The notes under the pieces are model-generated. The model did no database searches and was not told where the DNA came from. It was given only the letters and a program-made list of their open reading frames with translations. A stretch of DNA of 29,986 bases, from IMG/VR virus record IMGVR_UViG_640753023_000011. One strand, given 5' to 3'. Positions 5,983 to 29,340 of this stretch are shown piece by piece; within the stretch, counting starts at the first letter, position 1, and every line of letters starts with the position of its first letter. The position numbers and the translations under genes were made by a program. Source of the stretch: a virus (taxonomy: Duplodnaviria; Heunggongvirae; Uroviricota; Caudoviricetes).

Positions 5983-6069
5983 GCTGAAAAACATAACCCA
6001 TAAAATGCTAGCTGTACCAGGAACCACCTCCTTAGCCTGTGTAATCTCCCTTACGCAGGCTTATTTTTT
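5983..6069 (+). ncRNA. cyaR: CyaR (RyeE) small RNA
   Basis: Sequence gctgaaaaacataacccataaaatgctagctgtaccaggaaccacctcc... matches CyaR as I recall it, ending in a terminator hairpin (gcctgtgtaa/ttacgcaggc) plus a T-run; lies downstream of yegQ as in E. coli K-12. Confidence 0.85.
6043..6069. other. prophage attachment core, ogr-proximal copy (attR), overlapping the cyaR terminator
   Basis: 27-bp sequence aatctcccttacgcaggcttatttttt is repeated directly at 29314-29340 with 2 mismatches; the repeat matches the P2 att core as I recall it. Confidence 0.75.
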
Positions 6070-6132
6070 ACGCGTAACACAATGAAATAAAAGGATTTAT
6101 TTCTGGTCACGTCCACACATTGACCACATCGA

Positions 6133-6158
6133 CAAAAAAGCCCCTCGACTGAGGGGCT
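6133..6158 (-). terminator. rho-independent terminator downstream of ogr
   Basis: GC-rich inverted repeat gcccctc-gact-gaggggc followed on the minus strand by a T-run (plus-strand A6 at 6134-6139). Confidence 0.55.
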
Positions 6159-6170
6159 TCCTGTTTGTAA

Positions 6171-6389
6171 TTACATCCACATAATTTGCTGCCCTGACGG
6201 CAACGGGGGCGGTCTTACGGCGTGGACTTCTCCCGGCTTCACGATGTATCGCTGTACCGACTCATAAGTGATGAATGTGGCGCTGCAATTCACGTTCTGA
6301 CACTGGTGATAACGCTCTTTTGTCGTGTCAGTGATATAGCGGCTTGTACGCGCATGTGCGGCATGCTGGCATAAAGGACAATGAAACAT
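6171..6389 (-). CDS. ogr: Ogr, zinc-finger late-gene transcriptional activator (72 aa from MFHCPLCQ...)
   Basis: ORF contains MFHCPLCQHAAHARTSRYITDTTKERYHQCQNVNCSATF, the Ogr Cys4 zinc-finger sequence; the track ORF (6171..6452) has a 21-codon N-terminal extension that is probably not translated. Confidence 0.85.
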   Translation of the reverse strand: MFHCPLCQHAAHARTSRYITDTTKERYHQCQNVNCSATFITYESVQRYIVKPGEVHAVRPPPLPSGQQIMWM

Positions 6390-6470
6390 CGCGAGCACCT
6401 CTTCCGGTTTTGTTGATGGTGCTATTTTAGTTAATTTATCCTTATAAAACAAATAGATAAAATAAAAACA

Positions 6471-7634
6471 TCACTCATCATCTTCTGTTTCGTACTCCAC
6501 ATCAGAAAGCCTGACCTCAAGCTCCAAGGACGTCGTGAAGCCGCTATTATTCAGAAAATGTGTCACCTTAGTGATTGTCCAGTCCTGCTCGTCTATGACG
6601 CGCTTAAAGCCTGACACTTTAACCGGTGTTTCCGTGTAAATATCTGCCCGACCGGTAGCCAGGCTGATGGAGAACTCCGCAACGCCCCGTTGCAGCTTAT
6701 CCCACTTCGCCTGAGCGGCGCGCATGGCCTGCGCTTTCGTGGCATATACCGCGGTCAGGGCAAAAACATTGTCAGCCTCACCTGCCATGTATTCACCTTC
6801 GCGCGCTTCCGGTACTTTTGGCGCTTTCTTCTGCGTGACTGGTTTCGCTTTCGGGTGCTCCAGTGCGCGCAGGTGTTTCTCTTTCTTTTTGCGTTTCAGT
6901 TTTACCTTCTGCTTTTGTGGCTTCGGGTCTTTGGTGTGTAACCACTTTGCCGTTACGCCGGTATAGGCTCCACGGTCAGCAATCGCAAAATGATGGCGGT
7001 CGCCGTCGCTGCGGGTGATGGTAATCTGCGGGATTTTTTTACCGCTGGCCGTCACCCCCTGCCCCGCCTTGAGAAACAACAGTTTTCCCATTTTTACCGA
7101 CACCTCACCGCCGTTGCGTTCAGCAAGGCGGGTCAGGAATTTTGCATCAGACTCCTGCGACTGGTCGATGTGCGGGATTTTAATTCCGGCCAGTGACGGA
7201 GCGACACTGGCTTCCAGCCTGTTACGGGAGGCTATCGCTTCAACAATCGCACCGAGCGTGGTGTCATGCCAGGAGCCTTCACGGCGGGAATTGAGCGTCC
7301 CGCGAAAATCTGCACTCCGGGCGCGGATGGTGACCACATCCGGTGCGCCCCGGTGTTCAACCTCATCAACGGTAAATTTCCCTTTGCATACCAGGGCAAA
7401 ACCTTTCCAGCCGATATACACCGTCAGGACAGCGCCACGAACCGGCAGCCCGACCTGCCCGTCGGCATCGTTCAGTTCAATATCAAGCTGGTCAGCCTCA
7501 AAGCCCCGGTTATCCGTCAGGGTCATGCTCATCAGACGGTCGCTGATATTGCCGGTAATATCCCTGTTGTCGAGCATCAGCATGTAATCCGGCGTCAGCG
7601 TACTGCCTGCATCAAATGTCAGTGCATCCAGCAT
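6471..7634 (-). CDS. D: P2 gpD-like tail protein (late control gene D)
   Basis: 387 aa, same length and position as P2 D, between ogr and U. Confidence 0.8.
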   Translation of the reverse strand: MLDALTFDAGSTLTPDYMLMLDNRDITGNISDRLMSMTLTDNRGFEADQLDIELNDADGQVGLPVRGAVLTVYIGWKGFALVCKGKFTVDEVEHRGAPDVVTIRARSADFRGTLNSRREGSWHDTTLGAIVEAIASRNRLEASVAPSLAGIKIPHIDQSQESDAKFLTRLAERNGGEVSVKMGKLLFLKAGQGVTASGKKIPQITITRSDGDRHHFAIADRGAYTGVTAKWLHTKDPKPQKQKVKLKRKKKEKHLRALEHPKAKPVTQKKAPKVPEAREGEYMAGEADNVFALTAVYATKAQAMRAAQAKWDKLQRGVAEFSISLATGRADIYTETPVKVSGFKRVIDEQDWTITKVTHFLNNSGFTTSLELEVRLSDVEYETEDDE

Positions 7635-8113
7635 TATCCCGCCCCCGTCATATCCGTGAATTTAGTCGCCATACTGCCAGCCTTACCGATGAGCGATTCT
7701 GCCTGTTTACCGATATCGCCATAAAGCGCGGCCAGTGATTCATCAACGCGGGTGAGCGACAGCGTAAAATCAATTTTCCGGGGTGTGCCGTCTGCAAAGA
7801 AAATACTCCCTGTTTCACTCACCCTGCTGATGACATACATGCCGTAAATCATGCCGGTGCCATCCAGCAACGGCCACGCCCGGCCTTCCTCAGCCATCAG
7901 CCTGAGCGTGGTCATCGTCAGCTTGCCGCCGGTCAGTTCGGGATAAAGCACACCGGCAAGCGTGATATTTTCCTCGCCAACACCGAGAAACTGAAAGGCA
8001 TCCCGTTTGCCGATACGGGAATTTGACGCCCAGCGATAATCTGATTCACGCTGCATGGTCTGGTGTGGCAGCGTCTGGCGCATAAAAACAAACATACCTA
8101 ACGCGAGCATCAT
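7634..8113 (-). CDS. U: P2 gpU-like tail protein
   Basis: 159 aa; stop overlaps the D start; position between T and D as in P2. Confidence 0.8.
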   Translation of the reverse strand: MMLALGMFVFMRQTLPHQTMQRESDYRWASNSRIGKRDAFQFLGVGEENITLAGVLYPELTGGKLTMTTLRLMAEEGRAWPLLDGTGMIYGMYVISRVSETGSIFFADGTPRKIDFTLSLTRVDESLAALYGDIGKQAESLIGKAGSMATKFTDMTGAG

Positions 8114-8127
8114 TTTTCGTCACCTCC

Positions 8128-10575
8128 TTAACCGTCATGCATCATGCTGGCACGGGCGCGCGCACGTTTATCCCGCTCGTATTTTTCGAGCGCATCCTGT
8201 AACTGGCGGTCAAGCTGTGTCCCCGGCGCAGTACCACCCGTCAGGCTGATGTGATATTCGTTTTTACTCTGGTCCACATAAGAGCGGCCAGCCGGTGCCG
8301 TGACCGGCTGATAAGCCTGATAGCCTGCATAAGAGCTGGTCGCCGGAATATAACCACCGGTGCCATACGTGGCGGCATGAGTTCTGGCGGCGGTCTGGTC
8401 AAGTGTGTCTGACTCTTTGTTGATAACACCGAGTTTTTCCAGTACCCAGTCAATACCGCTGCGCAGTTTGTTGAACGCATTAAGCGGCAGCATCAGCGCG
8501 TCAGCCAGTGCCTGCCCGAACATGACGCCCGTGTCACGGCAACGGTTCAGGGTGTCCCGGGTGGCTTTAACCGGAGCAATCAGGTTTGTAAACCACTGCC
8601 ACGCGGCCTGTAACTTTTCGCCCAGCCAGTCAAACACCGGCTTAAGTGGCGTGAACAGCTCCCCCACCGGCGCAAATGCCGCTTTCAGCCCTTCAACCAC
8701 ACCGCCAAAGAATGCGCTGACAGGCTCCCAGTATTTACGGATAAGCAACGCCCCGGCGACAATGGCAGCCACCACGGCCACAACCGGCCAGCTAATCGCC
8801 CCGATGGCCGTCATAACAGCACTGCCAACCGTCGTGAAGATTGCCCCCATTGCGCCTGCTGCCGCGATAATAGCATTGATGCCGGTGATAACCGGCCAGG
8901 CTACGAGGCCAATGGCACCAATGATGCCAGTCAGCGCCAGTGCACCACCGGCAATTAGGCCAATGGTTAACGCCAGTGATTTGTTTTTCTGGATCCAGCC
9001 GTCGAGTTTTAACACATACTTTGTGGCCGTCTGCGTGAGCTTACGCAGTGCGCCTTCCTGCTGGTCAAACAGGTCAGTCCCCACCGCCTCATAAGCGGAC
9101 TGAAACTCCTTAAAGTCACCGCCGAGGTTGTCCTGCATGATATTTACCAGTTCTGCGGTCTTTCCGTCTGAGGCTTTAAACGCAGCGGTCAGTTTGTCCA
9201 GCTTTCCGGTTGAGGCGGCAGTCATCAGCACGGCGGCGGCTGAACTGGCCTCCTCCCCGAAAATGGTTTTCATGTATTCAGCCTGCTGGGCAGTACCGAG
9301 CCGGTTTTTCTCAAAACTGGCCTGCATTTCTTTCAGAATGGTAAATACTGGTCGGGTGTTTCCCTTACTGTCTGAGGTTTTCACACCAAGCTCTTTGAGT
9401 GCATCCCATGCTTTTCCCGTCGGTGCCTGCAGGCGGCTTAACACGGCACGGCTTCCCGTTCCCGCCATTGAACCGGTAATTTTTGCATCATGCAGCGCCC
9501 CGACCATTGCGGCTGTTTCTTCAATGCTGACACCGGCATTTTTTGCCACAGGTGCGGCATAGGTCAGCGCATCGCTCATACCGTCAAAATCGGCGGCGGT
9601 TTTGTTCATCGTCATGGAGAGAACATCCCCGATATGAGCGACCTTATCGTTTGAAAGCTGAAAGGCGGATTTCATCCCCATCAGCAGGGCGGCGTTTTCT
9701 TCCATCGTGCGGCGGTTCGCCAGCGCCATATTCAGCGTGACCGGCGTTGCCGCCTGAATGGCATCAACATCCCCACCGGCTTTCGCAATGATAATCTGCG
9801 CACCGGCAGCATCATCCGCCGAGGCGGCTGTGTTGTCGCCGAGCTGGCGCGCCTGTTTGCGTAGCGCGGCCATTTCGGCAGAATCTTTTGCCACACCGAG
9901 CACGGCCTGTAATTCTGAGTTTTTCTGCGCAAATTCATAACCGGGCATCAGCAGCTTAACACCGGCCATCGTTCCCGCCGCCGCAATCCCCACACCGGCA
10001 GCGCCCACTGAGGCCATATTTCCGGCCAGCTCCTTTCCTGCCTGATAGCGCTGTTTTACTGCGTTAAGTTTTGCCTGTTGCGCACTGACACGCGCCAGCG
10101 CGTCACGCTGCCGGTTAAGCTGTGCGGTGGTTTCACTGATACGGTTTTTCAGCCCCAGCTCATCATGTGCAAGATTGCGGGTATTAATTCCCACAGCGGC
10201 CAGTTCCCGCTGCTGGCGTTTAACGGAATCCGTCAGGCGGTTATATTTCGCCTGTAAGTCCTCCGCCGCACGCTTTGCGGATTCCAGCACTTTCGCCTGA
10301 GCACGGGTCGGACGTTCAGTGTTTTTAAACTGTGTGGCAAGGGCTTCGGCCTCCTGCCGTGCCTTTTCAAGTGCATGACCAGTCACGGCGAGCTGTGCGC
10401 TGGTCTTGCGAAATCCCTCAATACGGGATGCCTGACCATTCAGCTCGCGCAGTGATTTTTGTGTTTCCCGGATATCCCCCGACAGCGACTTGCTCGCTGT
10501 GCGGATGGATTTAAACGGGCGGGATGCCTGGTCAACAGCCCTGAGCAATACCTGTAATTTTACATTGTTACTCAT
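8128..10575 (-). CDS. T: tail tape measure protein (gpT-like)
   Basis: 815 aa; coiled-coil-rich N-terminal part, Gly/Ala-rich hydrophobic central segments, typical of tape measure proteins; lies downstream of E/E'. Confidence 0.85.
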   Translation of the reverse strand: MSNNVKLQVLLRAVDQASRPFKSIRTASKSLSGDIRETQKSLRELNGQASRIEGFRKTSAQLAVTGHALEKARQEAEALATQFKNTERPTRAQAKVLESAKRAAEDLQAKYNRLTDSVKRQQRELAAVGINTRNLAHDELGLKNRISETTAQLNRQRDALARVSAQQAKLNAVKQRYQAGKELAGNMASVGAAGVGIAAAGTMAGVKLLMPGYEFAQKNSELQAVLGVAKDSAEMAALRKQARQLGDNTAASADDAAGAQIIIAKAGGDVDAIQAATPVTLNMALANRRTMEENAALLMGMKSAFQLSNDKVAHIGDVLSMTMNKTAADFDGMSDALTYAAPVAKNAGVSIEETAAMVGALHDAKITGSMAGTGSRAVLSRLQAPTGKAWDALKELGVKTSDSKGNTRPVFTILKEMQASFEKNRLGTAQQAEYMKTIFGEEASSAAAVLMTAASTGKLDKLTAAFKASDGKTAELVNIMQDNLGGDFKEFQSAYEAVGTDLFDQQEGALRKLTQTATKYVLKLDGWIQKNKSLALTIGLIAGGALALTGIIGAIGLVAWPVITGINAIIAAAGAMGAIFTTVGSAVMTAIGAISWPVVAVVAAIVAGALLIRKYWEPVSAFFGGVVEGLKAAFAPVGELFTPLKPVFDWLGEKLQAAWQWFTNLIAPVKATRDTLNRCRDTGVMFGQALADALMLPLNAFNKLRSGIDWVLEKLGVINKESDTLDQTAARTHAATYGTGGYIPATSSYAGYQAYQPVTAPAGRSYVDQSKNEYHISLTGGTAPGTQLDRQLQDALEKYERDKRARARASMMHDG

Positions 10576-10995
10576 TCGTGTTTCCGCTTCGCCGGAGCGC
10601 CTTTTCGCGCCATGTGATGAGTTCGGTCAGGCTCATGGGATACAGTTCTGATGGCGGCCAGTGAAATATCACTGCCACATCCGCCATCAGGTCATCGACC
10701 GAGAGATTTTTCGGAAACGTCACTGCACCGAGTTCGGCGACAAAAAACCGACCACCTTACCGGCCAGCGCCACAAGGTCAGGCAGTTCCAGCGCGGCGAC
10801 TTCCTGCTCGGTCAGCATCGGTGCCGTCATGCGCGGCAGCACCTTAATCAGTGCATCGACTTCGGAGTTTGCAACCGCAGCCAGACTGACACCGCGTAGC
10901 GTCCCGGCACTGGGTTTCATCAGCGTGACCTGTTCGATAACCTGCTCACCACGTTTGACCGGATTGTCCAGGGTAATGACATTTTCTTTGTTCAT
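10568..10995 (-). CDS. E: tail assembly chaperones gpE (10720..10995, 91 aa) and the -1 frameshift product E+E' (extends to 10568)
   Basis: The E ORF ends ...VVGFLSPNSVQ*; the mRNA contains the slippery heptamer T_TTT_TTG (plus-strand caaaaaa at 10741-10747). My manual translation of the -1 frame runs open from there to a TAA at 10568-10570, overlapping the T start codon. Confidence 0.75.
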
Positions 10996-11051
10996 GGTTT
11001 TCTCACTTCTGAATCAGGGTTAACCGGCCAGCCAGGCTGACCGGATGAAAA

Positions 11052-11570
11052 TCACAGGCCGATATTGCGGCGGTGTTGCTCCAGCCGATCGACGCCGTTC
11101 ACCTTCTCAATCATGTTGATGGTGTCAATTTCGACCAGCTCCTTACCGTCCATCGTCAGCCGGAAATAGGTGCAGACCACGGAGATTTTCGACTCAGTGT
11201 CTTCTCCCTGTTTACCCTCGCCGGTGTCGATTTCTTTCTGACGTCCACGCATGACCACTTCGACGGCCACCGTTTCGCCGGTATCGTCGCGCTGGTAAGA
11301 GCCTGCAAAACGAATCGGCACGGCATCCACACCGGTTGCGGCGTAAAGCTCCCAGATAACCGAATCCGGGAAGCCACCGAGCGACCACTCCATTGACAGC
11401 GCATCGTCATCAAGGCCGAGGTCTACCGGTGCGCTGCCGTTCATCCCCGCACCGCGATAGTTTTCGAGCTTACGGGTCAGTTTTGGCAGCGTGACGGACT
11501 TTGCAACGCCCTGATAGCTGTAGCCGTTCAGAAAGACGTTCATTAACTTGAGTTTGCGCGGCATTGCCAT
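11052..11570 (-). CDS. FII: tail tube protein (gpFII-like)
   Basis: 172 aa; position immediately downstream of the sheath gene as in P2. Confidence 0.8.
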   Translation of the reverse strand: MAMPRKLKLMNVFLNGYSYQGVAKSVTLPKLTRKLENYRGAGMNGSAPVDLGLDDDALSMEWSLGGFPDSVIWELYAATGVDAVPIRFAGSYQRDDTGETVAVEVVMRGRQKEIDTGEGKQGEDTESKISVVCTYFRLTMDGKELVEIDTINMIEKVNGVDRLEQHRRNIGL

Positions 11571-11582
11571 CGGTCAGGCTCC

Positions 11583-12443
11583 TTAATTGCTGTTAACCGA
11601 GGTGACCAGATTTGCCAGGTATTTATCGGTAATACGCTGGCGCAGGGTCAGGTTTTCGAGAGGAGGCACCGGTGTATAGTCGTAGTCGATATACAGTTTT
11701 CCGGCCTTGAGGGTTTCCGCATCGTTGGATTCTTCGCTGAACCAGCATGAGCCATCCACGATATAGCCGTTTGTTTTCAGCTCACGGAATTTGGCATTGA
11801 TGCCGTCAACGATATCGCGAATCAGCGTTGCGGTGATGGGCTTGTCCACCGCCCACATGTGCGCCTCAGCCATCGTGTCGGCCAGCACCTGCGCGGTGCG
11901 GGTGTAGTTTTCAAAGAGAAACAGCGGGTCATCAGAGCAGGTACGGTTACCCCAAAAGCGGAAACCGTCGCGGCGAATCAGCGTAGTGACGCCTGACTCG
12001 TTAAGCAGGTCAGCATCGGTGCCGGACTCCTGCAAATCCCAGAATACAGAGGCGCTGATGCCGGTAACACCGTTTACCCCGACGTTGGACAGCGTTTTAT
12101 GCCAGCCCTGCTCCTGGTCGATTTTAGCGCGCAGACCCAGCGCACGGGCGGTGGCATACGCGGTGGCGGTGGTACTGGTGACCGTATCCCATGCGAGGAA
12201 ATCCGGCCAGATGACCATCAGCTCACGCTGGCTGAAATTCTGGCGGTAGGCTTTCACCTCGGAAATGGTTTTACAGCCCCATGCGCTGATATACCCGAAA
12301 GCGCGCAGCTTCTGACAGACGGATGCCAGTGCAACAGCCACCTCTTTGGTATCCAGTCCCGGCACACCGAGAATACGCGGTTTAACACCGGTTACCGACT
12401 CCGCCGCCAGCAGGTGCGTATTACCGTGAAGGAGATCGGTGAG
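11583..12443 (-). pseudogene. FI: tail sheath protein (gpFI-like), 5'-truncated at the IS boundary
   Basis: 288-aa ORF where ~390-400 aa is expected for a myovirus sheath; the ORF's first codons lie at or within the IS21-family left end. Confidence 0.75.
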
Positions 12444-12499
12444 TAACATCGATGGAGATCGGTTCGTGTCACTTTCACAGAACCGTTTTTAAATTACCT

Positions 12500-13249
12500 T
12501 CACTGATCTCCTTCGGTCAACGGAGATTGTATTTTCCGCATTGATTCTCCTTTAAGTTCGATCTTGATACTGCCATGAACCAGTCGATCTAGGATGGCAT
12601 CCGCATGTGTGGAGTCTCCGATCATTTTGTACCAGTTTTCCACCGGCAACTGGCTCACTACGATGATTGAGCCTCGTTGGTACATCAGATCCACTATTTC
12701 CAGCAGGTCGCTACGCTGTTCTGATGAGAGAGGTTCCAGCCCCCAGTCATCCAGAAGCAGCAGATCGCTATTATTCAGCCTGGTCAAAAGTTTGCTGTAT
12801 CTTCCATCAGCATGCCCCTGATAGCACTGTTCCATCAGCGCTTTAAGGCGATAATAGTAGACCTTGTATCCCTGTCGGCAGGCATTATGACCAAGTGCAC
12901 ATGCCAGGAACGTTTTACCGCTGCCGGTGGCCCCGGTCAGTAAAATATTTTGTTTCAGGGTTAACCAGTTTCCCTGACTGAGTGAACGGATGAGGGCCCT
13001 GTCCAGCCCTCTATTGTTACGATAATCCAGCTTTGATAACTCAGCATTAAGTCTGAACCGTGCATGTTTGATCAGACGCTCTGCCTTCCTGTTTTCACGG
13101 CAGGTTAGTTCTTCTGCTGTCAGTAATGACAGGCGTTCTTCGAAGCCCAGCTCCTGGTATGTGCCCGGCTGAGCAAGTTGCTTTTTAAGCGCATCACGGA
13201 AGCCGGTGAGTTTAAGTGCGGTCAGTTGTTCGTAAAGATGATTCATCAT
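12500..13249 (-). CDS. istB: IS21-family IstB transposition helper ATPase
   Basis: 249 aa with Walker A (GATGSGKT) and Walker B (LLLLDDWG) motifs; located downstream of istA. Confidence 0.85.
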   Translation of the reverse strand: MMNHLYEQLTALKLTGFRDALKKQLAQPGTYQELGFEERLSLLTAEELTCRENRKAERLIKHARFRLNAELSKLDYRNNRGLDRALIRSLSQGNWLTLKQNILLTGATGSGKTFLACALGHNACRQGYKVYYYRLKALMEQCYQGHADGRYSKLLTRLNNSDLLLLDDWGLEPLSSEQRSDLLEIVDLMYQRGSIIVVSQLPVENWYKMIGDSTHADAILDRLVHGSIKIELKGESMRKIQSPLTEGDQ

Positions 13250-13260
13250 TGGATCCCGTA

Positions 13261-14803
13261 TCAGTGGTAATACTCACTGCCGCGTACGTTTTCGTGTTCC
13301 ATCGTGGATAACAGATCTGGTTTTGGATCCTGAACAGGTTGTTTATCCAGACCTTTTTCCAGGATCGATTTAATACCTGACAGACGCCATACCTTTGTTT
13401 TCAGAGCTCTTGCACATGCTGCATTAAGTCTGGCTTTACTGTATTTTTTATGAAGGTTCAGGAGTCCAAGGCAGAAGCGATAGCTTTGTTCCGGATGTGG
13501 ACGAGAGTTCAGTATATGAAGCACATAACTATGAGTTTCACTGCCTATGTGCCCCGCCCATTCCAGAAGACGCTCTGGCGTCCAGGTGGCATGCTGTCGA
13601 TGAGCTTCAGGCATGTGCTCGTTGCGGGTACTGTAGCCATAAGTACGCTTGCGCGGGTGCACAGCAACCTCCTGCCCCTGATTGAAGAGTCTTACCAGTT
13701 CTCCGGAGATCCATGCTTCCAGTTGCTGGCCTAACAGCGAACATGGAACCGAGTAGTAATGTTTGTCGATTTCCACGTGGTAATCGGCATGAACTCTGAC
13801 TTTCTTCACCAGGGTGTAACTGTAACTGGCTTCAGGAAGAGGCTTCAGTGCGGGTTTATCAAGCTGGATGAAGAGTTCTGCACGTGAATAACCCAACTTC
13901 TGCATTATTTTGTTATTCAGTCTTTCCAGCAACTCCCGAATGCGCTGATTAAGCGATGCAAGGCTGTAGAAGATCTCATGCCTGATTCGGGCCATGATCC
14001 AGCGTTCAACAACCTGAACGCCAACTTCAGCTTTGGCTTTATCTTTTCGGTTTACGTGGCCGCGCAGGCAAAACTGCGACATTATAATGCTCAAGCATCT
14101 GCTGGTAGGTAGGGTTAACGTCAGGATCATACTTACATGCCCTGGATGTGGCGCTTTTCAGATTGTCCGGAACAACAAGTTCAGGAACGCCACCCAACCA
14201 CTGGAAGCAGCGAACATGACTCATCACCCAGTCTTCAAGCTGCTGAGACCAGGTGGCCTCTGCCCATGTGTAACTTGATGCCCCGAGAACAGCTACGATG
14301 ACCTGAGCAGTTCTTATTTCTCCGGTCTCAGGGTCGGTAACGCCAACGGTAGGTCCACAGTAATCAACGAAAAGTTTTTCGCCAGCTTTATGTACCTGAC
14401 GCATTGATGGTGAAGTGGTTTTGAGCCATTCACGGTACATCCGGCAGTAATGGTTATAGCTGTAAAAACCGCCTGGATTACGCTCACAGTATTCTTCCCA
14501 GAGTAGCTGCAGCGTCACGCATTTATTACGCAGTTCCCGGTGTACTGTAGCCCAGTCAGGCAGAGAGTGCTTCTTCATCTTAACCTGGGTCTGAAGGAAC
14601 GCATGTTTTAGTTTTGTATCATCCCATCCTGTAGGTAAGGGCCACTGCTTTATGCCAAGTTGAGCCGCCCGATTAGCATATCTGGATACAACGGAAGGGG
14701 AGATTGCAAGACTACGACCAATTTGTCGATGGCTGAGTCCAACACCGTATTTAAGCCTAAGAATTTCTTTAAGTTTTCTCATAGAAATTGGAACTGTTGG
14801 CAT
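13261..14803 (-). pseudogene. istA: IS21-family IstA transposase, split by a frameshift into 254-aa and 289-aa ORFs
   Basis: N-terminal ORF (14039..14803) has an HTH and ends ...RPRKPKR*; the C-terminal ORF (13261..14130) continues in another frame with ...[11 protein letters not shown]...; the shift maps to a T4 (mRNA A4) run at 14044-14047. Confidence 0.7.
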
Positions 14804-14917
14804 AGGTATCCTTTACCGGAATGGCAAAAGATACAGATCAACACACCTGTGAAGTTCCAATAACATTGATGGAGATCACTGAATAACAAAATGAGTCAAA
14901 AGTGATCTCCATCGATG

Positions 14918-16437: not shown

Positions 16438-16918
16438 CCGAGCCTCCGGTCACGACGCTGTATTCAGTACAGAAAGACGCCTGCGTACTGTTGAGCACAA
16501 TGTCAGCCAGCGGTGCAGTCAGTTCGACACGCTGCACGCCTTCCACATGCAAAGCGGCATAAATGGCAGACAGACGGATGTCGCGCCCAAGCCGGTGCTG
16601 TGCCGTGATGTACGCTTCCAGTTTTTTCACGGCAGCAGCGCGGATGGGTTCGCTTTCGGGACCAGGGTAAAGGTAAAGCGTGGCGTTTATCTGGTATTCA
16701 ACAATGGCGGCAGACTGCACGGTCACGCGGTCGGCCACCGGTCTGACGTCCTCGCCATTCAGGGCGTTACGCACCACGGCCAGCAGGTCTTCGGATGCGA
16801 CACCGTTATTTTCACGTGACAGCACGGAGATGGTGACGCAGGCCGGAGACGGACTGGTGACAGAGATATCCGCGACACGCCCGTCGGCACTGCGGCCATG
16901 ATACTGATAGGCTCCCAC
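16430..16918 (-). pseudogene. J: baseplate protein (gpJ-like), 5'-truncated; N-terminus of the called ORF derives from the repeat junction
   Basis: 162-aa ORF where ~300 aa is expected for P2 J; upstream sequence is the 38-bp tandem repeat array, not J coding sequence. Confidence 0.6.
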
Positions 16919-20579: not shown

Positions 20580-20583
20580 ACAT

Positions 20584-20606
20584 CGCCGCCTGCGGGCGGC
20601 TTTTTT
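20584..20606 (+). terminator. rho-independent terminator after Q
   Basis: gccgcc-tgcg-ggcggc hairpin followed by T6. Confidence 0.6.
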
Positions 20607-20748
20607 ACAACCCGCCATCACGCCCTCACACGCTCACCACCGCACAAAACACCCCGCAGACACACCAACGCCCCGGCGCACAATCCAAACGCCGTCACGA
20701 CGCGCTGAGACGCTGAAAAAATAAAATCAGCACCACCGCCAGCGCGCA

Positions 20749-20767
20749 GTGCTTTCCCCGCCTCGCC
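20749..20767. other. cos site (19-nt cohesive end sequence of P2-type phages)
   Basis: gtgctttccccgcctcgcc is the reverse complement of the P2 cohesive end GGCGAGGCGGGGAAAGCAC as I recall it. Confidence 0.7.
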
Positions 20768-20817
20768 CGCCCGCTTCATGGGTCGGTTTTAATGCAGATG
20801 CATGTGAACACTCGAGA

Positions 20818-21955: not shown

Positions 21956-23231
21956 TATGTATTTAAAGGCAGTTATATTTTCAATCGCAGATGTTGTATT
22001 ACCATTAACATCTAACACTCAACCTCAGGAACTAAAATCTAGAATCGACTCTGAATTACGTAAGTTGTTTGCGTTTTTGTCATCAAAAGGGATTAAAGTT
22101 ATCTTCTTGACAAATAAAAATAGAAACGTGAGAACACATGACGGGATCGTAACACTAGACGAATACCTAAAAAGGAAATTCCCAGAATCAATTCACTTTT
22201 GCCGTGAACTCGACAACAACATACCAGCAAAACAAACAGGGAAGGCCATAGATTTCATCATGGCTGCGTTAGAATTAAAACGAAACGAAATGATCTATGT
22301 AGGGCGTTCTCAGGAAGACTTACAAGCAGCTACCAACGGGAATACCCTATTTATTAATGCGACCTGGTATGAACCGGTTACTGAGTACGGTTTTCAATTT
22401 TCAGAACCCAAAGAAATCGCTAGATTTATTGATGTCTTTTGCTTAAGAGAGCAGTTGTGGGGATGGCAAGGGCATTTTAATGAAGATGTTCACTACTACG
22501 CCTTAGCACCATTTAGCACATATGTCCCTGAATTTACAATGTATTCAGCCAATGCAAGAGACCTCGCAAAGCTATCGGTTGGAAGCCCCGATTTTTGGAT
22601 AAGATATCTTGGTGCTAGCATTTATTTCTCTGGCTTAAGTGAAGGAGCAAGTTTTATAACCACCTACGTTGGACATAACGCTGAAGATCCTTATAAACTA
22701 GCAAACATTATGGAGCATGACCTAAAAGGTTTAGCAGTTTCATTCAAAGGAAAGTATCTAAAAGATCTATTCTTACGACATACAACAGCTATTAAATCAC
22801 AGCAAGCTCGGATAGCTAAGCAAGAAGTAAACATCACATCTCAAATAAACACAGTTAATTTAAATCCTGCCCCTATTAAAAACCTCATCACCGGCGAAAG
22901 ATATACCAACCCTCCTAAATTGAAAGGTAAGAAAATATTAGTTATTGATGATTTTTGCACTGAAGGAAATGCTCATGAAACAGCCAGAATGTATCTAAAA
23001 GCTGCAGGCGCAAATGTAATAAATATATCGTGGTTAAAAACCATCAATCGTGACGTTTCTATCTGTGAACCAACTCGCAAGATACGGCCATGGGAGGCCA
23101 ATACACTTGATGTTGATGACATTAACTATGTCGGTACGATTGGTTATGCTGAAAATGTAACTCACGGTAGTGCACCTCAAGTGTTATCAGAAAAAATTCA
23201 ACAATATGATAACTGGGACTGGCCACAATAA
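21948..23231 (+). CDS. two-domain protein: N-terminal HAD-like fold with atypical motif I, C-terminal type I phosphoribosyltransferase (PRTase)-like domain; candidate ShosT-like toxin/effector
   Basis: C-terminal KKILVIDDFCTEGNAHETA fits the PRPP-binding motif of type I PRTases; N-terminal AVIFSIADVVL...VIFLTNKN...K...IYVGRSQEDL resembles HAD motifs I-IV with both motif-I Asp positions substituted; overlaps the upstream gene by 8 nt (alternative start at 21957). Confidence 0.65.
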   Translation: MNNMYLKAVIFSIADVVLPLTSNTQPQELKSRIDSELRKLFAFLSSKGIKVIFLTNKNRNVRTHDGIVTLDEYLKRKFPESIHFCRELDNNIPAKQTGKAIDFIMAALELKRNEMIYVGRSQEDLQAATNGNTLFINATWYEPVTEYGFQFSEPKEIARFIDVFCLREQLWGWQGHFNEDVHYYALAPFSTYVPEFTMYSANARDLAKLSVGSPDFWIRYLGASIYFSGLSEGASFITTYVGHNAEDPYKLANIMEHDLKGLAVSFKGKYLKDLFLRHTTAIKSQQARIAKQEVNITSQINTVNLNPAPIKNLITGERYTNPPKLKGKKILVIDDFCTEGNAHETARMYLKAAGANVINISWLKTINRDVSICEPTRKIRPWEANTLDVDDINYVGTIGYAENVTHGSAPQVLSEKIQQYDNWDWPQ

Positions 23232-23248
23232 ATCAATCCCATAATTTA

Positions 23249-23406: not shown

Positions 23407-25704
23407 TTACCACTCATCAATCACTGGATATTTGAATTTTTTATTATCATAAATCACCATCGCCCCACGCGCCAGCGCCTCAAGCTCCCATCGCTGCGGT
23501 CTGATACCGTTCTGAGCAAGGTCAACGCGGATACGGGTGATTTGCAATCTTTCAGACCGGGTCAGTCTGGCCGATGGTGCAATTTCATGTGGTTTTAACG
23601 GGCTTCCGTTTCTTTGCTGACGGTTTGGTCTTCTCAGGCCGTGTTTTAATGCGCTTCTGAGCGCCCTCACAACCTCCGGGTCATTCCATTCGATAACACC
23701 GTCATCAACCAGATTAAGCACTGCTGCGGCGTGCTCAGAAGGTGTGGGAGCCGGTAACGAAGTATCACCGCCGGTGAGCTTTCCACAGTTATTGACAGGA
23801 CTCCGAGGCGCGGCGATGCCGCTTTTTAAAGTCAAAGGCTCAACGACCGGCACTTTCGGAACAATGCGCCAGTCCGTCGTTCTGGTGATATGAATATGAC
23901 GTGCGCCGAGATGCGGCGCGTAAATGCCGACCACTCTCTCGACCTCCTCCTCGTACTCGTTAACGTCATCCGACGGGCTACGGGCGACCCTGACAGTCTG
24001 ACAATCGCGCGGGACATTTGCCCCGCCCTGCGCGCTGATATACAACGCAAAATCACCACTGTCTGCAGCGGCGCGTGCAGCCTCGACGCGCTCGTCAAAC
24101 TCATCAGCAATGCTGACGCCGCGAGGCAATTTGCGTAGTTCACGGTAAGCCCCCATTGTCGGCAGACCAACCGTTTTAAATTGCGGAATGCGCCACGTTG
24201 ACGCCCATGCGGTAACAGCCGCAGCTGTGTCTTTCAGCGGCCTACCGGTATCATTATCGAGCTGACCATCCAGTGCATAGCCGTCGATGTTTTTTGAAAT
24301 GTATTTCGCGATATATCCCGCAGCACCGCCCCGGTTAAGGTGTTTTGCCTGAAAACGGTTTCGCGCGGCTCCTCTTTCGTCGCCATCCTCTTTGAGCGCA
24401 TAGCGACGCATGATTTCAATAATCTGGTTACGCTGGCGTGGATTACAAAAAAGCATCATATGCCAGTGCGGCGTTCCGTCGTGGTGTGGTTCAACAACAC
24501 GCAAACCGTAGGCCTGTAAATCATTATCCTTGAATGCCGTGCGCATCAGGCTCCAGATACGGCAGAGATAACGCTGCGCATCCTTTGGATTAAATGCCTC
24601 ATCATTCCAGCCGTGATTTAGCTGGACGGTTTTACTTTCGCCTTTTCTGACCTGACGTGTCGGGTGATACTTTGACGGCGCGGTCAGCGTGATAAACATC
24701 CCCACATCACCCTCTGCGGCAGCGTAACGCTCAATACCGGCGATGGTGTTCATCAGCTCCATCCGGCGAATTTCTGGATTAGAAATACTGCCCATCACCT
24801 TACTGATAAGGTCGATGCGCTCGCCGGTTTCCCTGTTTTCAAGGTCACACGATTTAAGAAATTCCAGATTTGCCTGGCGGCGCGCACGCACATCACGAAT
24901 GGCATGTTTACTTGCATAAGGAGAACGGTCTTTATTGACCTCCCCGACAGCAATCAGTAACGCCTCATGCCAGCGCATACGCTGGCCTTTAAGCTGATGA
25001 GTCCACCATTCATCGTTAAACAGACGGGCAATGGCAGAATATGCCTGCCTCGTGGTCATCTGCCCTTTACGGTATTTTTTCCAGTAGAGCGGAGAAATAT
25101 TGAAAGCACGTGCAGCGCCAGCAACATGACCATAGAGGTGAGCCTGCGCCTCATCCGTAAACAGCGATTCTTTTTCGCCATGCGCATCCACCCAGGCATC
25201 GCAGAGTTCCTCATACATCATGAAAAGCTGCGATGAGATACGGGCGGCAAACTTTTTCAGCTCCTTATCATTCATCCCCGGCAGACGCGCATAATGGTCA
25301 CGCTCTGCCAGAAACAGCAACGACGCGTCGGTGTTCATTTCATGGCGCTGATTCACGCGCTCAATGCGCGGCCATAAACGACGCTGAAAAGTGGATGTGA
25401 GGAAATAAAACCCGTGCACCGGGCTTTTATTGCGCCGGATGTAGTCATAGCGTGAAGTAAACAGCGAGCGCAAAAAGTAAGGCAGGCGGTTAATCGTGGA
25501 TAAAACACCTTGCACCTGACGCATCTCGTCACGTGTAAGGGGTCTTTCGCGCCCGACAGCCTCGCGTGGCGCGTTCCATGCATAAGCACCGGTAAACGCC
25601 TTACCGGTGCCTGCGGCAAATGCTGACGGAGGGACAAAACGCCCGGAGGCTTTAACGTCCATATGAGCCAAAAGCCTCTGAACAACGCCTGCTGAGTTGC
25701 TCAA
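23407..25704 (-). CDS. A: replication initiation protein (gpA-like rolling-circle endonuclease)
   Basis: 765 aa, close to the length of P2 A; last gene of the early operon; contains a HWHMM motif. Confidence 0.85.
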   Translation of the reverse strand: MSNSAGVVQRLLAHMDVKASGRFVPPSAFAAGTGKAFTGAYAWNAPREAVGRERPLTRDEMRQVQGVLSTINRLPYFLRSLFTSRYDYIRRNKSPVHGFYFLTSTFQRRLWPRIERVNQRHEMNTDASLLFLAERDHYARLPGMNDKELKKFAARISSQLFMMYEELCDAWVDAHGEKESLFTDEAQAHLYGHVAGAARAFNISPLYWKKYRKGQMTTRQAYSAIARLFNDEWWTHQLKGQRMRWHEALLIAVGEVNKDRSPYASKHAIRDVRARRQANLEFLKSCDLENRETGERIDLISKVMGSISNPEIRRMELMNTIAGIERYAAAEGDVGMFITLTAPSKYHPTRQVRKGESKTVQLNHGWNDEAFNPKDAQRYLCRIWSLMRTAFKDNDLQAYGLRVVEPHHDGTPHWHMMLFCNPRQRNQIIEIMRRYALKEDGDERGAARNRFQAKHLNRGGAAGYIAKYISKNIDGYALDGQLDNDTGRPLKDTAAAVTAWASTWRIPQFKTVGLPTMGAYRELRKLPRGVSIADEFDERVEAARAAADSGDFALYISAQGGANVPRDCQTVRVARSPSDDVNEYEEEVERVVGIYAPHLGARHIHITRTTDWRIVPKVPVVEPLTLKSGIAAPRSPVNNCGKLTGGDTSLPAPTPSEHAAAVLNLVDDGVIEWNDPEVVRALRSALKHGLRRPNRQQRNGSPLKPHEIAPSARLTRSERLQITRIRVDLAQNGIRPQRWELEALARGAMVIYDNKKFKYPVIDEW

Positions 25705-25927
25705 CCTGCGCGTTTAAATCAGCAAAAGACTTTGCGCTTCCGGTCAGAATATCGTGATGCATCAGGCCGGAAACGAGCTGGCTTAATTTCGGATAATAAC
25801 CAACCACCGCCAGCCATTCCTGACCGGCGTTTTTACCGCTTTCCGCTCTCTTTTTCTCGTGGAGAATAAACTGAAAGCTGTCACTGGTAACGACATAACG
25901 TTCGCCAATTTCGATACGAATACTCAT
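25652..25927 (-). CDS. early-operon small protein (P2 orf83-like)
   Basis: 91-aa ORF in the position of P2 orf83; overlaps the called A start, so one of the two starts is probably internal. Confidence 0.5.
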   Translation of the reverse strand: MSIRIEIGERYVVTSDSFQFILHEKKRAESGKNAGQEWLAVVGYYPKLSQLVSGLMHHDILTGSAKSFADLNAQVEQLSRRCSEAFGSYGR

Positions 25928-26148
25928 GCCATTCTCCGGTAATGCTTGTTTTTTGCTTCAAAGACTGACTGGCAGGAAACACAACGCGTGGCTGACGGGT
26001 AAGCCGCACGACGGGCAGCAGGTATTGGCGTGTCACACTCTTCGCAAACCAGCGCAGAAGCACAGCAATGTTTTACCCTTGCCGCGTTAATCTGGCGCTC
26101 CAGTAATTCAGCCTGTTGTTCCTGAATAAAATCTACGTTGTCCGGCAT
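25924..26148 (-). CDS. TraR/DksA-family C4 zinc-finger protein (P2 orf82-like)
   Basis: 74 aa with a CxxC...CxxC arrangement (CEECDT ... CVSC). Confidence 0.65.
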   Translation of the reverse strand: MPDNVDFIQEQQAELLERQINAARVKHCCASALVCEECDTPIPAARRAAYPSATRCVSCQSVFEAKNKHYRRMA

Positions 26149-26150
26149 TA

Positions 26151-26453
26151 TCAGCTCCTTTTATCGTTAAGTTTCCTGGATACATCAGCGCAATAACTGG
26201 CGAGTTCTGTCGTTAATTTTGTCAGTTCATCCACTGAGGAAATTTGCTTGTGGAACACAGCGCGTTTAACAAGTAAATTGACCACATCAGACAGGAGGTT
26301 TAATTCATTCTGATAAATCGCGATAACAGATTCAGTTATGTCGCGTTTTTCTTTATCAAGACAAAGTTGAATAAGAGACAAATCACCATTTTCCATAACA
26401 GCTATTTTTAAGGCGTTATTCAGTAATACAACCGAACGAGAACAGGACATCAA
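26151..26453 (-). CDS. early-operon small protein (P2 orf81-like)
   Basis: 100-aa ORF, tightly packed in the cox–A operon. Confidence 0.5.
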
Positions 26454-26674
26454 AGCACCTCCCCGCGAGACAATCCGATATTGTGAAATTTTTCCGACTC
26501 CTGACTGAGCAGCTCGACTATCTCCACGCGGGATAACTCCGCCTTTGTGATGTGGCGAATCATGGCGTCAAGATGAGAAGAAAAGCGCGTCGCAGCGTCG
26601 GCCTGTGCTTCGGTTCTGGCCTGTTTCAGCAGTAATGCGTATTTATCGCACTGATTTTCAGAAACTGTATGCAT
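26450..26674 (-). CDS. early-operon small protein (P2 orf80-like)
   Basis: 74-aa ORF; stop overlaps the next gene's start. Confidence 0.5.
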
Positions 26675-26737
26675 GACTTTCTCCAGGCAAAAAGAAGCCC
26701 CGCACGATTAAGTGCGTTAAAAACTCTGGTTAATTAT

Positions 26738-27244
26738 TTAATGCAGATATTGCTCTGGTTTTACCGACGTCAGAATTGTCGGTGCATACTCAAACAGGCT
26801 GAATAATTCACGTAATGCACGGAATAAAGCATCACGCCAGTAACATGATTCTTCATTAATTCGCCAGTATGGCTGGTTAAATTCTTTTTCTGTCAGTCGT
26901 GCGTGCATAAATAAAGTGCGACGCTGACTGACTGTTAAAAAACTAATATATGCATACTCACTTGCGCCAACCTGACGGCGTTTTGAGAATGCCCCACGCA
27001 ATTCATCAATTGCACATACCAGTCGTTCACGTTCGACGTCGTTCATTTCTTCAAAACGCATCGTTGCGTGACGCTGTTTTAACTGCGCATGGAAGCAAAC
27101 CGTTAGCCGTTCACGTTCCATCATCTGATTATAATAATCGCATGTCTCCTGCCAGCGAGGGACGGCCAGATGCTTACCAATTATCCGGCGCATGGTTGCT
27201 GGCTGTTTTTCAACGAGATTGAGCGTCATCACTGTCATTTCCAT
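26738..27244 (-). CDS. B: replication protein B-like (helicase-loader type)
   Basis: ~166-168 aa in the position of P2 gene B, between cox/orf78 and orf80. Confidence 0.65.
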   Translation of the reverse strand: MEMTVMTLNLVEKQPATMRRIIGKHLAVPRWQETCDYYNQMMERERLTVCFHAQLKQRHATMRFEEMNDVERERLVCAIDELRGAFSKRRQVGASEYAYISFLTVSQRRTLFMHARLTEKEFNQPYWRINEESCYWRDALFRALRELFSLFEYAPTILTSVKPEQYLH

Positions 27245-27429
27245 ACCCTCCGGCTTTTCAGAAAGGTCAGAGCCTTTTTTAACGGACTCTGTTTTTTGGT
27301 GCGGATAATGATTCCCTTGCGTCCCTTCCCGTGGGTGATGGTAAAGTCAATCGCCCTGGGGCTTTCGTTACGCAATAACTGAGCAATACAACGAGGCTCG
27401 TTCATACGGTTCTCCTTAACGTGGTTCAC
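27235..27429 (-). CDS. early-operon small protein (P2 orf78-like)
   Basis: 64-aa ORF between cox and B. Confidence 0.45.
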   Translation of the reverse strand: MNHVKENRMNEPRCIAQLLRNESPRAIDFTITHGKGRKGIIIRTKKQSPLKKALTFLKSRRVWK

Positions 27430-27691
27430 CGAGACCTAACCACATCAACCAGCCGTCACGAATCTCTTTAGGGCGGCTTTCATAAGCCAGTTTTAGTCCG
27501 TTATTCCATGCCGGAAGGTATACCCAATATTCACCTGCACGACCTGAAGCTGATTGTGGATCGGTCATATCAATTACAGGCAGCTTTCCTTTATCGATCA
27601 TCCGACGAACCGCTCCTGTCGATTTTCCTATTAGTTTTGCGAACTCCTGATAAGGAATCGCATCAGTCATGAGTGTTACTTGCTTGCTCAT
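27416..27691 (-). CDS. cox: Cox (excisionase / repressor of Pc)
   Basis: 91 aa, same length as P2 Cox, divergent from C; sequence MSKQVTLMTDAIPYQEFAKLIGKSTGAVRRMIDKGKLPVI... has an HTH-like segment. Confidence 0.8.
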   Translation of the reverse strand: MSKQVTLMTDAIPYQEFAKLIGKSTGAVRRMIDKGKLPVIDMTDPQSASGRAGEYWVYLPAWNNGLKLAYESRPKEIRDGWLMWLGLGEPR

Positions 27692-27805
27692 GTCGTCCCC
27701 CAGCCCTCATGAATTGCGTTTAATGCCTTATAATGCCTTTTAGTGCCCACATCCAAGCACTAAACAATCTACATCTAAACTAAATACCATTGAGATCTAA
27801 ACACC
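27692..27805. promoter_or_regulatory. divergent Pe/Pc promoter–operator region of the lysogeny switch
   Basis: Intergenic region between divergent cox and C; contains direct repeats of atctaaac and an inverted repeat agtgc...gcact. Confidence 0.5.
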
Positions 27806-28105
27806 ATGTCAAACACGATAAGCGAGAAGATAGTCTTAATGCGAAAATCAGAGTATTTGAGCAGACAACAACTTGCTGATTTAACAGGGGTTCCGTATGG
27901 CACGCTGAGTTACTATGAAAGTGGTCGTTCAACACCTCCAACAGATGTCATGATGAACATCCTGCAGACCCCACAATTCACCAAATACACTTTATGGTTC
28001 ATGACCAATCAGGTCGCTCCTGAGTCCGGGCAAATTGCGCCCGCTCTCGCACACTTTGGGCAAAACGAAACAACGTCGCCCCACTCCGGTCAAAAGACTG
28101 GTTAA
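27806..28105 (+). CDS. C: immunity repressor C
   Basis: 99 aa, same length as P2 C, divergent from cox and upstream of int; contains an HTH (LSRQQLADLTGVPYGTLSYYESG). Confidence 0.8.
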   Translation: MSNTISEKIVLMRKSEYLSRQQLADLTGVPYGTLSYYESGRSTPPTDVMMNILQTPQFTKYTLWFMTNQVAPESGQIAPALAHFGQNETTSPHSGQKTG

Positions 28106-28220
28106 CAATTTATCGTGAATATATTCATCACAAGTGCCTACTATTGGTGGCTAAATTTCAGCCACCACGAAAAAAGCGATTAGTAGTAGCAAAAAAAAGT
28201 ACCACTCGGAGGGTTTTCTG

Positions 28221-29234
28221 ATGGCAATCAAAAAACTCGATGATGGTCGATATGAAGTGGACATCCGCCCTACTGGACGTAACGGAAAACGCATCCGTAG
28301 GAAGTTTGATAAGAAAAGCGAAGCTGTCGCTTTCGAAAAATACACGTTGTACAACCACCACAATAAAGAATGGCTATCAAAACCAACAGACAAACGACGT
28401 CTGTCGGAACTGACACAGATCTGGTGGGATTTAAAGGGTAAACACGAAGAGCATGGGAAATCTAATCTTGGAAAAATTGAAATCTTCACAAAAATAACGA
28501 ATGACCCATGCGCATTTCAAATCACGAAATCCCTTATCAGCCAGTACTGCGCCACCCGAAGAAGCCAGGGTATTAAACCTTCGAGTATCAATCGTGATTT
28601 AACATGTATTAGCGGCATGTTTACAGCCCTGATTGAAGCGGAGTTATTCTTTGGTGAGCACCCTATCAGAGGGACAAAGAGGCTTAAGGAGGAAAAACCA
28701 GAAACAGGCTATCTCACACAGGAAGAAATTGCCTTACTGCTTGCAGCACTTGACGGCGACAATAAAAAGATTGCGATTCTTTGCCTGAGTACAGGAGCAC
28801 GTTGGGGAGAAGCAGCTCGTTTGAAAGCAGAAAATATCATCCATAACCGCGTCACGTTTGTTAAAACGAAAACAAACAAACCACGCACCGTCCCGATTTC
28901 AGAGGCTGTTGCCAAAATGATCGCGGATAACAAACGAGGTTTTTTATTCCCTGATGCTGATTACCCTCGCTTCAGACGAACAATGAAAGCAATAAAACCG
29001 GATTTGCCAATGGGGCAAGCCACACATGCACTAAGGCACAGCTTTGCCACTCATTTCATGATTAATGGAGGAAGTATTATCACGCTACAACGGATACTAG
29101 GTCACACGCGGATTGAGCAAACTATGGTTTACGCTCATTTTGCGCCAGAGTACCTTCAGGACGCCATTTCTCTTAATCCGCTAAGAGGTGGTACTGAGGC
29201 CGAGAGTGTCCACACAGTGTCCACAGTAGAGTAA
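28221..29234 (+). CDS. int: tyrosine integrase (P2 Int-like)
   Basis: 337 aa, same length as P2 Int; C-terminal catalytic signature HALRHSFATH...LGH...MVYAHF; adjacent to the att core. Confidence 0.9.
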   Translation: MAIKKLDDGRYEVDIRPTGRNGKRIRRKFDKKSEAVAFEKYTLYNHHNKEWLSKPTDKRRLSELTQIWWDLKGKHEEHGKSNLGKIEIFTKITNDPCAFQITKSLISQYCATRRSQGIKPSSINRDLTCISGMFTALIEAELFFGEHPIRGTKRLKEEKPETGYLTQEEIALLLAALDGDNKKIAILCLSTGARWGEAARLKAENIIHNRVTFVKTKTNKPRTVPISEAVAKMIADNKRGFLFPDADYPRFRRTMKAIKPDLPMGQATHALRHSFATHFMINGGSIITLQRILGHTRIEQTMVYAHFAPEYLQDAISLNPLRGGTEAESVHTVSTVE

Positions 29235-29313
29235 CGTTTAAGGGCTTTCAGTGGTAATTTATGCCGCTCAAACCCGCATTGTACCGTTGAAAGCCCCTAC
29301 TGGTGACACCCTA

Positions 29314-29340
29314 AATCTCCCTTACACGGGCTTATTTTTT
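29314..29340. other. prophage attachment core, int-proximal copy (attL)
   Basis: aatctcccttacacgggcttatttttt; direct repeat of 6043-6069 (25/27 identical). Confidence 0.75.

Follow-up and report, generated by a model that had tools for sequence, protein, structure and literature searches.

Defective P2-like elements that retain conserved defense genes have been described, and whether they are domesticated or still exchanging these genes was left open (PMC13586616). One such defense system combines a DprA-like protein with a phosphoribosyltransferase (PRTase), and a pair of this kind located in the P2 hotspot was protective against T7 and lambda (Rousset et al. 2022, PMC9122126). The pair, named ShosTA, has since been studied using the exact genes of Escherichia coli APEC O1 (ABJ01487/ABJ01488), for which phage defense from the native promoter was shown. 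In this system, purine metabolism is disrupted by ShosT, a PRTase/pyrophosphatase, the unstable DprA-like protein ShosA serves as the antitoxin, and T7 Gp0.7 acts as a trigger (Pu et al. 2025, PMC11961720). The word 'prophage' appears nowhere in the text of that structure paper, and the system is not described as prophage-borne (PMC11961720). Here, we analyzed a stretch of viral DNA of 29,986 nucleotides (IMG/VR record IMGVR_UViG_640753023_000011; hereafter, the window), in which positions 6043-29340 constitute a P2-like (Peduovirus) prophage of 23,298 bp that carries ShosTA. We conclude with high confidence that this element is a decayed prophage of APEC O1 that has undergone two deletions and retains an intact lysogeny and replication module together with its ShosTA cargo, and that its present form is probably linked in origin to a second P2-like prophage (prophage B) of the same genome.

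The window was 100% identical to the chromosome of E. coli APEC O1 (CP000468.1) over the 20.5 kb compared (7048-27599); APEC O1 is a chicken pathogen whose genome has been public since 2006. The prophage occupies the 3' end of the cyaR small RNA (sRNA) gene between yegQ and yegR, with a 27-bp att core as a direct repeat at its two ends and int beside attR. An earlier reading made from the letters alone (the sequence-only reading) had placed the ends of the element correctly to the base, and its estimate of ~23.3 kb agrees with the measured length. The yegQ-yegR interval is also occupied by intact relatives in strains XJ5.2 and 98221.

DNA blocks and gene content were determined relative to phage P2 (NC_001895), using blastn for the former and tblastn with 42 P2 proteins for the latter. 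The window matched P2 in four collinear blocks of 91-97% identity that preserve the P2 gene order: 6043-12412 corresponds to P2 24382-18013 (97.2%; att core, ogr, D, U, T, E/E', FII and the 3' part of FI), 16001-16928 to P2 12629-11702 (90.8%; I and the 3' part of J), 17096-20767 to P2 3671-1 (97.3%; the 5' part of O, P, Q and cosL) and 23410-29341 to P2 30286-24355 (96.9%; A through cox, C, int and att), while 20749-20796 matched cosR. Twenty P2 genes were recovered at full length and ungapped (ogr, D, U, T, E/E', FII, I, P, Q, A, orf83-80, B, orf78, cox, C and int), with protein identities of 82-100%, reaching 98-100% for the tail genes D to FII (6471-11570), and with DNA ~97% identical to P2. 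O (aa 1-167), J (C-terminal part), H (N-terminal ~299 aa, of a non-P2 type) and FI (aa 117-396) are present as fragments only. The P2 proteins N, M, L, X, Y, K, lysA/B/C, R, S, orf30, V, W and G gave no tblastn match, and neither did fun(Z), orf91, tin and old.

According to P2 genetics as annotated in NC_001895, nearly all of the lost or truncated genes are classed as essential. The losses comprise the capsid gene N, the scaffold C-terminus, terminase gene M, head completion gene L, holin, endolysin and gene X, as well as the baseplate genes V, W and part of J, the fiber assembly gene G, the tail completion genes R and S, and intact versions of the FI sheath and H fiber genes. A complete P2-like phage moreover has all essential genes and four late promoters, whereas a search for the pV and pF activator sites in the window found both to be absent. 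As pF is deleted, FII, E, E', T, U and D are intact but left without a late promoter. Given the loss of essential head, lysis, baseplate, sheath and fiber genes, it is a sound inference that the element would be unable to build virus particles. The sequence-only reading had made the same prediction, and its gene inventory is borne out by the P2 alignment and the tblastn results, with the small correction that X is missing too. Its statement that packaging-enzyme genes are kept needs a similar correction, as the small terminase subunit M is gone and the enzyme is incomplete; its description of an element that lacks most tail genes is only just true, as seven tail genes survive. The missing morphogenesis genes, the discovery of which elsewhere in the prophage would have spoken against that reading, are not located there; some of these genes (V, W, J, I, H and G) are present in prophage B. 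A tailocin was considered and rejected on gene content, the sheath gene being truncated and V and W missing.

The genes that remain are in good condition. P (590 aa), Q (344 aa), T (815 aa), D (387 aa) and U carry no inactivating mutation, and the lysogeny and replication module is, as the sequence-only reading had proposed, intact down to the operators, the ori nick site and the Int/Cox/IHF sites (Table 1), with a face-to-face C/Cox switch and an A gene containing ori, both of P2 type. The cargo (20972-23231) lies in the cos-adjacent old/tin hotspot, where ShosTA takes the place of old, tin and orf91, and consists of adjacent genes for a DprA-like ShosA (Pfam DNA_processg_A, 1e-59) and a PRTase ShosT (a weak Pribosyltran match). 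Both products matched structures of the system (PDB 8zva-8zvd, 9vzo and 9w2p/q, E up to 4e-296) essentially end to end, ShosT corresponding to 8zvb (E 4e-296, residues 1-427) and ShosA to 9vzo/8zva (E 5e-221). By extension from the cloned genes (PMC11961720, PMC9122126), the prophage-borne copy may be expected to protect against phages in its native context. Compared with a prophage at the pflA site of strain APEC O18, the ShosTA cassette differs by 1 mismatch in 3 kb, while the neighboring P and Q differ by 2-3%; a near-identical cassette beside diverged P and Q is a known signature of cassette exchange.

The P2 alignment, which the sequence-only reading had suggested as a check, maps the losses to two deletions. 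The first, between the O and J fragments (O' and J'), is exactly 8,030 bp relative to both P2 and the XJ5.2 prophage and extends from O codon 167 to J codon ~137, removing the O C-terminus, N, M, L, X, Y, K, lysA/B/C, R, S, orf30, V, W, the J N-terminus and pV. The joint is marked by a tandem array of a 38-bp unit. When read against XJ5.2, the unit proved to combine an 11-nt piece of J (CTCCCACCGAC) with a 27-nt piece from the 3' end of FI (CTGGCGCAGGGTCAGGTTTTCGAGAGG); the FI piece corresponds to P2 18762-18788. The unit is joined at GGCG and AGG microhomologies, and O resumes from the last copy at P2 3671. This arrangement resembles a scar of template-switching repair that was later amplified. 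The resulting 183-aa product of O' plus scar is unique to the window, with the same call in CP000468.1 and in two Logan runs. The 38-bp unit was not found in complete E. coli genomes, GTDB representatives or JGI metagenomes, and a search of E. coli genomes with the J'/O' junction returned strain NMEC O18, which has no array, as the sole match. A 162-aa J' open reading frame (ORF) that occurs in many other contigs was evaluated as the mark of a recurrent breakpoint and rejected: in these contigs the prophage is otherwise complete, and the ORF lies just downstream of a 1-nt deletion within a run of G, a gap in the scaffold or some other rearrangement.

The second deletion, between the H and FI fragments (H' and FI'), amounts to about 4.4 kb relative to P2 and includes H from codon ~300, G, the fun(Z) hotspot, pF and FI codons 1-116. 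In the gap lies a copy of ISEc12, which accounts for the ~2.5 kb insertion sequence (IS) of the sequence-only reading and contains an IS21-type istA and the gene for the istB helper ATPase, though istA is split. It is 99.9% identical to a complete 2,581-bp copy in strain 98221 but stops 65 bp short at the istA end, where it meets H codon ~300 and has lost the inverted repeat. With one inverted repeat missing and no target-site duplication, the window copy does not have intact ends; its FI-side end, however, is the true terminus and forms a transposition junction at P2 18013. More generally, at least three separate insertions of ISEc12 into the fiber/sheath region were observed among P2-like prophages: one in H of strain 98221 (12575-15155 of the compared stretch), with a 7-bp target duplication; one in FI of strain E302 (~14110 of the compared stretch), at a different position and in a prophage located at fieF; and one at P2 18013 in FI of prophage B of APEC O1 (7455-10037 of the compared stretch).

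Prophage B is located beside pflB at 0.94-0.96 Mb of CP000468.1 and was compared over 938154-959020 (~21 kb). The compared part includes intact copies of V (in part), W, J, I, H, G and a gene resembling fun(Z), and FI is interrupted by a complete ISEc12 at P2 18013-18017; neither P2-like prophage of APEC O1 has an intact sheath gene FI. Window positions 11506-14931, comprising 909 bp of FI' and the IS, are the same as prophage B except for two single-base indels, and the neighboring 6082-11505 show ~2.5% divergence. Likewise, J' and the 5' part of I (16001-16928) are 99.7% identical to prophage B, compared to 96.6% for XJ5.2 and 91.9% for O18. Because the tracts flanking both junctions are B-like, the simplest reading is that the two prophages exchanged sequence by gene conversion or by templated break repair, suggesting that the deletions were made or remodeled by recombination with the co-resident prophage B. 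The presence of prophage B at pflB, with (near-)identical tracts flanking the junctions, is new here and points to this origin.

Two other accounts of the deletions deserve consideration. In our first reading, ISEc12 had transposed into the prophage and its transposase had removed the adjacent H-FI DNA, consistent with an IS that sits exactly at the deletion and lacks a target duplication. We rejected this on the basis of the complete ISEc12 ends in 98221 and prophage B, and now regard it as improbable: the H-side joint lies 65 bp within the IS, without its terminal inverted repeat, and is therefore an illegitimate deletion and not a transposase product, while the FI-side junction and the IS are identical to the complete insertion in prophage B, and the IS therefore came by homologous copying, not fresh transposition. 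Alternatively, the 2006 assembly might have cross-joined two ~97% identical P2-like prophages and thereby created false deletions, given that both share an identical 3.4-kb tract of IS and FI', a classic assembler trap, and that their two ISEc12 copies carry different single-base indels in istA (window ~13809 and ~14044). These indels reflect either independent inactivation or homopolymer errors of that assembly, and the Logan contig SRR7524170 has an intact 513-aa IstA beside an identical FI' junction. The junctions themselves, however, recur in independent data: that between H' and the truncated IS has a 100% match in a Logan contig of short reads present in 7 samples, and that between O' and the array in two independent other Logan runs, one of which differs by 5 single-nucleotide polymorphisms (SNPs) and hence derives from another strain. 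Outside the shared tract, moreover, the window is 2.5% off prophage B and continues into the yegQ flank, and a J'/O' junction occurs independently at this locus in NMEC O18. An assembly artefact is thus highly improbable.

The sequence-only reading had gone further and called the element domesticated, that is, a remnant in which host selection for ShosTA and C immunity was accompanied by purging of dispensable or lethal morphogenesis and lysis genes. Such a process would explain the loss of the lysis genes and most virion genes alongside intact ShosTA, C, int and replication genes; ShosTA of APEC O1 is active against phages (PMC11961720), and domestication has been raised as a possibility for defective P2-like elements with conserved defense genes (PMC13586616). 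We nevertheless consider it unlikely, and the claim stands unproven. T, P, D and Q are useless now yet intact, as recent decay predicts, and the intactness of such genes fits recent decay as well as selection. The exact architecture was encountered only in APEC O1 and a small number of related runs; it is absent from 5,426 complete E. coli genomes (a collection without APEC O1), among which the best match covers 88% and is always an intact prophage of 33-37 kb. Finally, the cargo is equally conserved in intact prophages, so its conservation needs no domestication: an identical ShosT is listed in 1,387 index blocks, and all 10 places inspected (8 at yegR and 2 at pflA) are intact-looking P2-like prophages.

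A further possibility is that the element is mobilizable and depends on a heteroimmune P2-like helper for packaging and transfer, in the manner of a satellite. In cos, ori, the Int/Cox sites and the att cores it matches P2 exactly or nearly so, a second P2-like prophage resides in the same genome, and 23.3 kb corresponds to ~2 P4 genome lengths; P2-size heads accept P4 multimers of 23-35 kb. We give this account little credence, as FI of prophage B is also disrupted, precluding a sheath from this source, there is no sign of spread, and ShosTA elsewhere is found in intact prophages. Classification as a satellite was itself rejected because all segments are P2 homology, ISEc12 or ShosTA, with no satellite-specific genes among the non-P2 DNA (P4 genes were not searched by name).

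Several points weigh against our own account of a decayed prophage shaped by recombination with prophage B. The IHF site at attL has 6 mismatches to P2 in 34 positions, such that excision competence is not certain, and errors in the 2006 Sanger assembly may account for the single-base frameshifts in istA. The comparison with prophage B covers ~21 kb, short of its O-P-Q side, and the two deletions may have arisen through one or several events and in any order. Functional statements, furthermore, rest on P2 genetics and on published work.

With these caveats, the behavior of the decayed prophage can be sketched. Int would have integrated it at an attB formed by the cyaR 3' end, between yegQ and yegR, and C would repress Pe, keeping the element silent and conferring immunity to phages of the P2 immunity type. 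ShosTA, expressed from its own promoter, would act as an abortive toxin-antitoxin defense, as reported for the identical genes. Excision and replication may persist upon Cox expression or derepression, with int, cox, att, A, B and ori all intact, whereas cell lysis and the building of heads, baseplates, sheaths and fibers would not be possible, and prophage B would be unable to supply FI in trans. According to the citation of Bertani & Bertani 1970 in PMC5009727, P2 is the classic non-inducible temperate phage; mitomycin C induction, which the sequence-only reading had proposed, is ill-suited as a test for this reason.

Table 1. Features of the prophage and its attachment site in the window (strand as annotated; a dot denotes an unstranded feature).
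Feature	Position	Strand	Remarks
cyaR (ryeE) sRNA	5981-6066	+	Rfam RF00112, 100.2 bits, E 3.9e-19; 3' end/terminator overlaps attL core
attL core	6043-6069	.	27 bp; 2 mismatches to P2 attP core
Int P-arm site	6105-6132		beside attL; identical to P2
ogr terminator	6137-6160		
ogr	6171-6389	-	late-gene activator; 72 aa, 98.6% identical to P2
ogr promoter	6423-6452		
D	6471-7634	-	tail gene, intact
U	7634-8113	-	tail gene, intact
T	8128-10575	-	tape measure, intact
E'	10568-10723	-	tail gene, intact
E	10720-10995	-	tail gene, intact
FII	11052-11570	-	tube, intact
FI'	11583-12414	-	sheath fragment; P2 codons 117-396; breakpoint = P2 18013
ISEc12 (IS21 family)	12415-14931	-	2,517 bp
istB	12500-13249	-	Pfam IstB_IS21 2e-67
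istA	13261-14803	-	rve and Mu-transpos_C_2 domains; two ORFs, frameshift (+1) from extra T near 14044
H'	14932-15829	-	tail-fiber fragment; N-terminal ~299 codons, non-P2 type; Pfam Phage_tail_fib 1e-62; abuts truncated IS end
I	15826-16437	-	baseplate/tail protein, intact, 203 aa; Pfam Tail_P2_I 3e-56
J'	16430-16928	-	baseplate fragment; ~P2 codons 138-302; breakpoint = P2 11702
Deletion scar	16909-17096	.	188 bp; 4.9 tandem copies of 38-bp unit; Tandem Repeats Finder (TRF) score 348, 96% matches
O'	17048-17599	-	scaffold/protease fragment; codons 1-167; frame extends 17 codons into repeat array
pO/pP late-promoter activator (Ogr) site	17679-17709	.	identical to P2
P	17773-19545	+	terminase large subunit, intact
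Q	19545-20579	+	portal, intact
tQ terminator	20585-20606		identical to P2
cos	20749-20767	.	19-nt cohesive-end sequence, identical to P2
shosA	20972-21955	+	DprA-like antitoxin; PADLOC ShosA 2e-231, full length
shosT	21948-23231	+	PRTase toxin; PADLOC ShosT 4e-296, full length
Early/replication operon	23407-27691	-	A, orf83, orf82, orf81, orf80, B, orf78, cox; all intact
A	23407-25662	-	
ori nick region	23789-23819		nick +/-15 nt identical to P2
B	26738-27238	-	
cox	27416-27691	-	
Pe/Pc switch with C operators	27706-27816	.	2 mismatches in 111 nt vs P2
C	27806-28105	+	immunity repressor; 99% identical to P2
int	28221-29234	+	100% amino-acid identity to P2 Int
Int P' arm	29200-29226		identical to P2
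Cox boxes	29224-29297		identical to P2
attR core	29314-29340		perfect match to P2

The assignment of attB to the cyaR 3' end follows from the overlap of the cyaR gene with the attL core; cyaR was the sole match in an Rfam search of the window, and a tRNA scan of the window returned none. As cyaR ends within the attL core, the sRNA terminator is supplied or rebuilt by the prophage, and the two attL core mismatches (6055 and 6057) are located in the terminator stem. Just upstream of yegQ lies an AT-rich island of three minus-strand genes (435-4049; 36-44% GC; DUF4034, DUF1266 and PcfJ-like), at the place of which XJ5.2 and 98221 carry a ParDE toxin-antitoxin pair; PADLOC gave no match on the left-flank genes. 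On the other side, between attR and yegR, a 169-bp segment (29495-29663) is present in the window and NMEC O18 and absent in XJ5.2 and 98221.

The element is, in sum, an ordinary decaying P2-like prophage of a genome published long ago, and its defense cassette is a known one; such prophages are common, and ShosTA of APEC O1 has already been solved and tested. What the locus adds is that the type ShosTA lies in the cos-adjacent hotspot of a defective P2-like prophage, which bears on its native regulation and mobility, and that it illustrates plainly how two prophages of ~97% identity in one chromosome can erode and patch each other.

Relative to P2 (NC_001895), the prophage has the same gene order, ~97% DNA identity over the retained blocks, and the same cos, ori nick region and Int/Cox sites, but it is without 8.0 kb (O'-J') and ~4.4 kb (H'-FI'), has H and I of another type, carries ShosTA in place of old/tin/orf91, and contains a truncated ISEc12. 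At the same yegQ-yegR site, a comparison also suggested by the sequence-only reading, the intact relative in XJ5.2 (CP074354) has an identical gene order, ShosTA in the same hotspot and 98% identity; the pflA-site prophage of APEC O18 (CP006830) likewise has ShosTA in this hotspot. Unlike the window, both keep all morphogenesis and lysis genes and have no such deletions.

NMEC O18 (CP007275) provides a counterpart of the first deletion. Its chromosomal flanks at this locus differ from the window by 1 SNP and 1 indel in 6 kb, and it contains a P2-like prophage with a J'/O' deletion that has the same J breakpoint. In contrast to the window, the junction is clean (CCGACCCGGCG joined to TTGCCACTG): it has a GGCG microhomology, lacks the 38-bp array and retains 7 nt less of O. 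The O18 prophage has intact FI, H and G genes and a truncated A, is free of any IS, and carries SIR2 plus an ATPase as its cargo. Divergence between the arms of the two elements is 2-4% and begins inside the attL core. A GGCG-to-GGCG deletion would derive the O18 junction from the window type, whereas the reverse is impossible. The shared J breakpoint could reflect either common ancestry of the deletion, with the arms overwritten afterwards, or a deletion that arose twice independently. APEC O1 and NMEC O18 share their background and the J breakpoint and differ in cargo, fiber modules and arms, and the scar-adjacent tracts in each strain match the pflA/pflB-site prophage of that strain group; in NMEC O18, ~7.4 kb across the junction show 0 mismatches to the pflA-site prophage, with the APEC O18 copy as representative. 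On this basis, we tentatively raise the possibility, which we hold to be somewhat doubtful, that the defective prophage is an active recombination partner, overwritten by co-resident or incoming P2-like phages while its scar persists. Were the scar inherited from a common ancestor, defective P2 elements would still be swapping defense cassettes, and the APEC O1/NMEC O18 pair can be used to ask whether they do. Compared to cryptic P2 remnants and defective P2-like elements (PMC13586616; PMC3448106), in which mobility or virion functions are lost and the hotspot defense genes intact, the prophage described here is similar in this respect but represents an earlier stage, with no retained gene a pseudogene and with integration, immunity, replication and cos intact.

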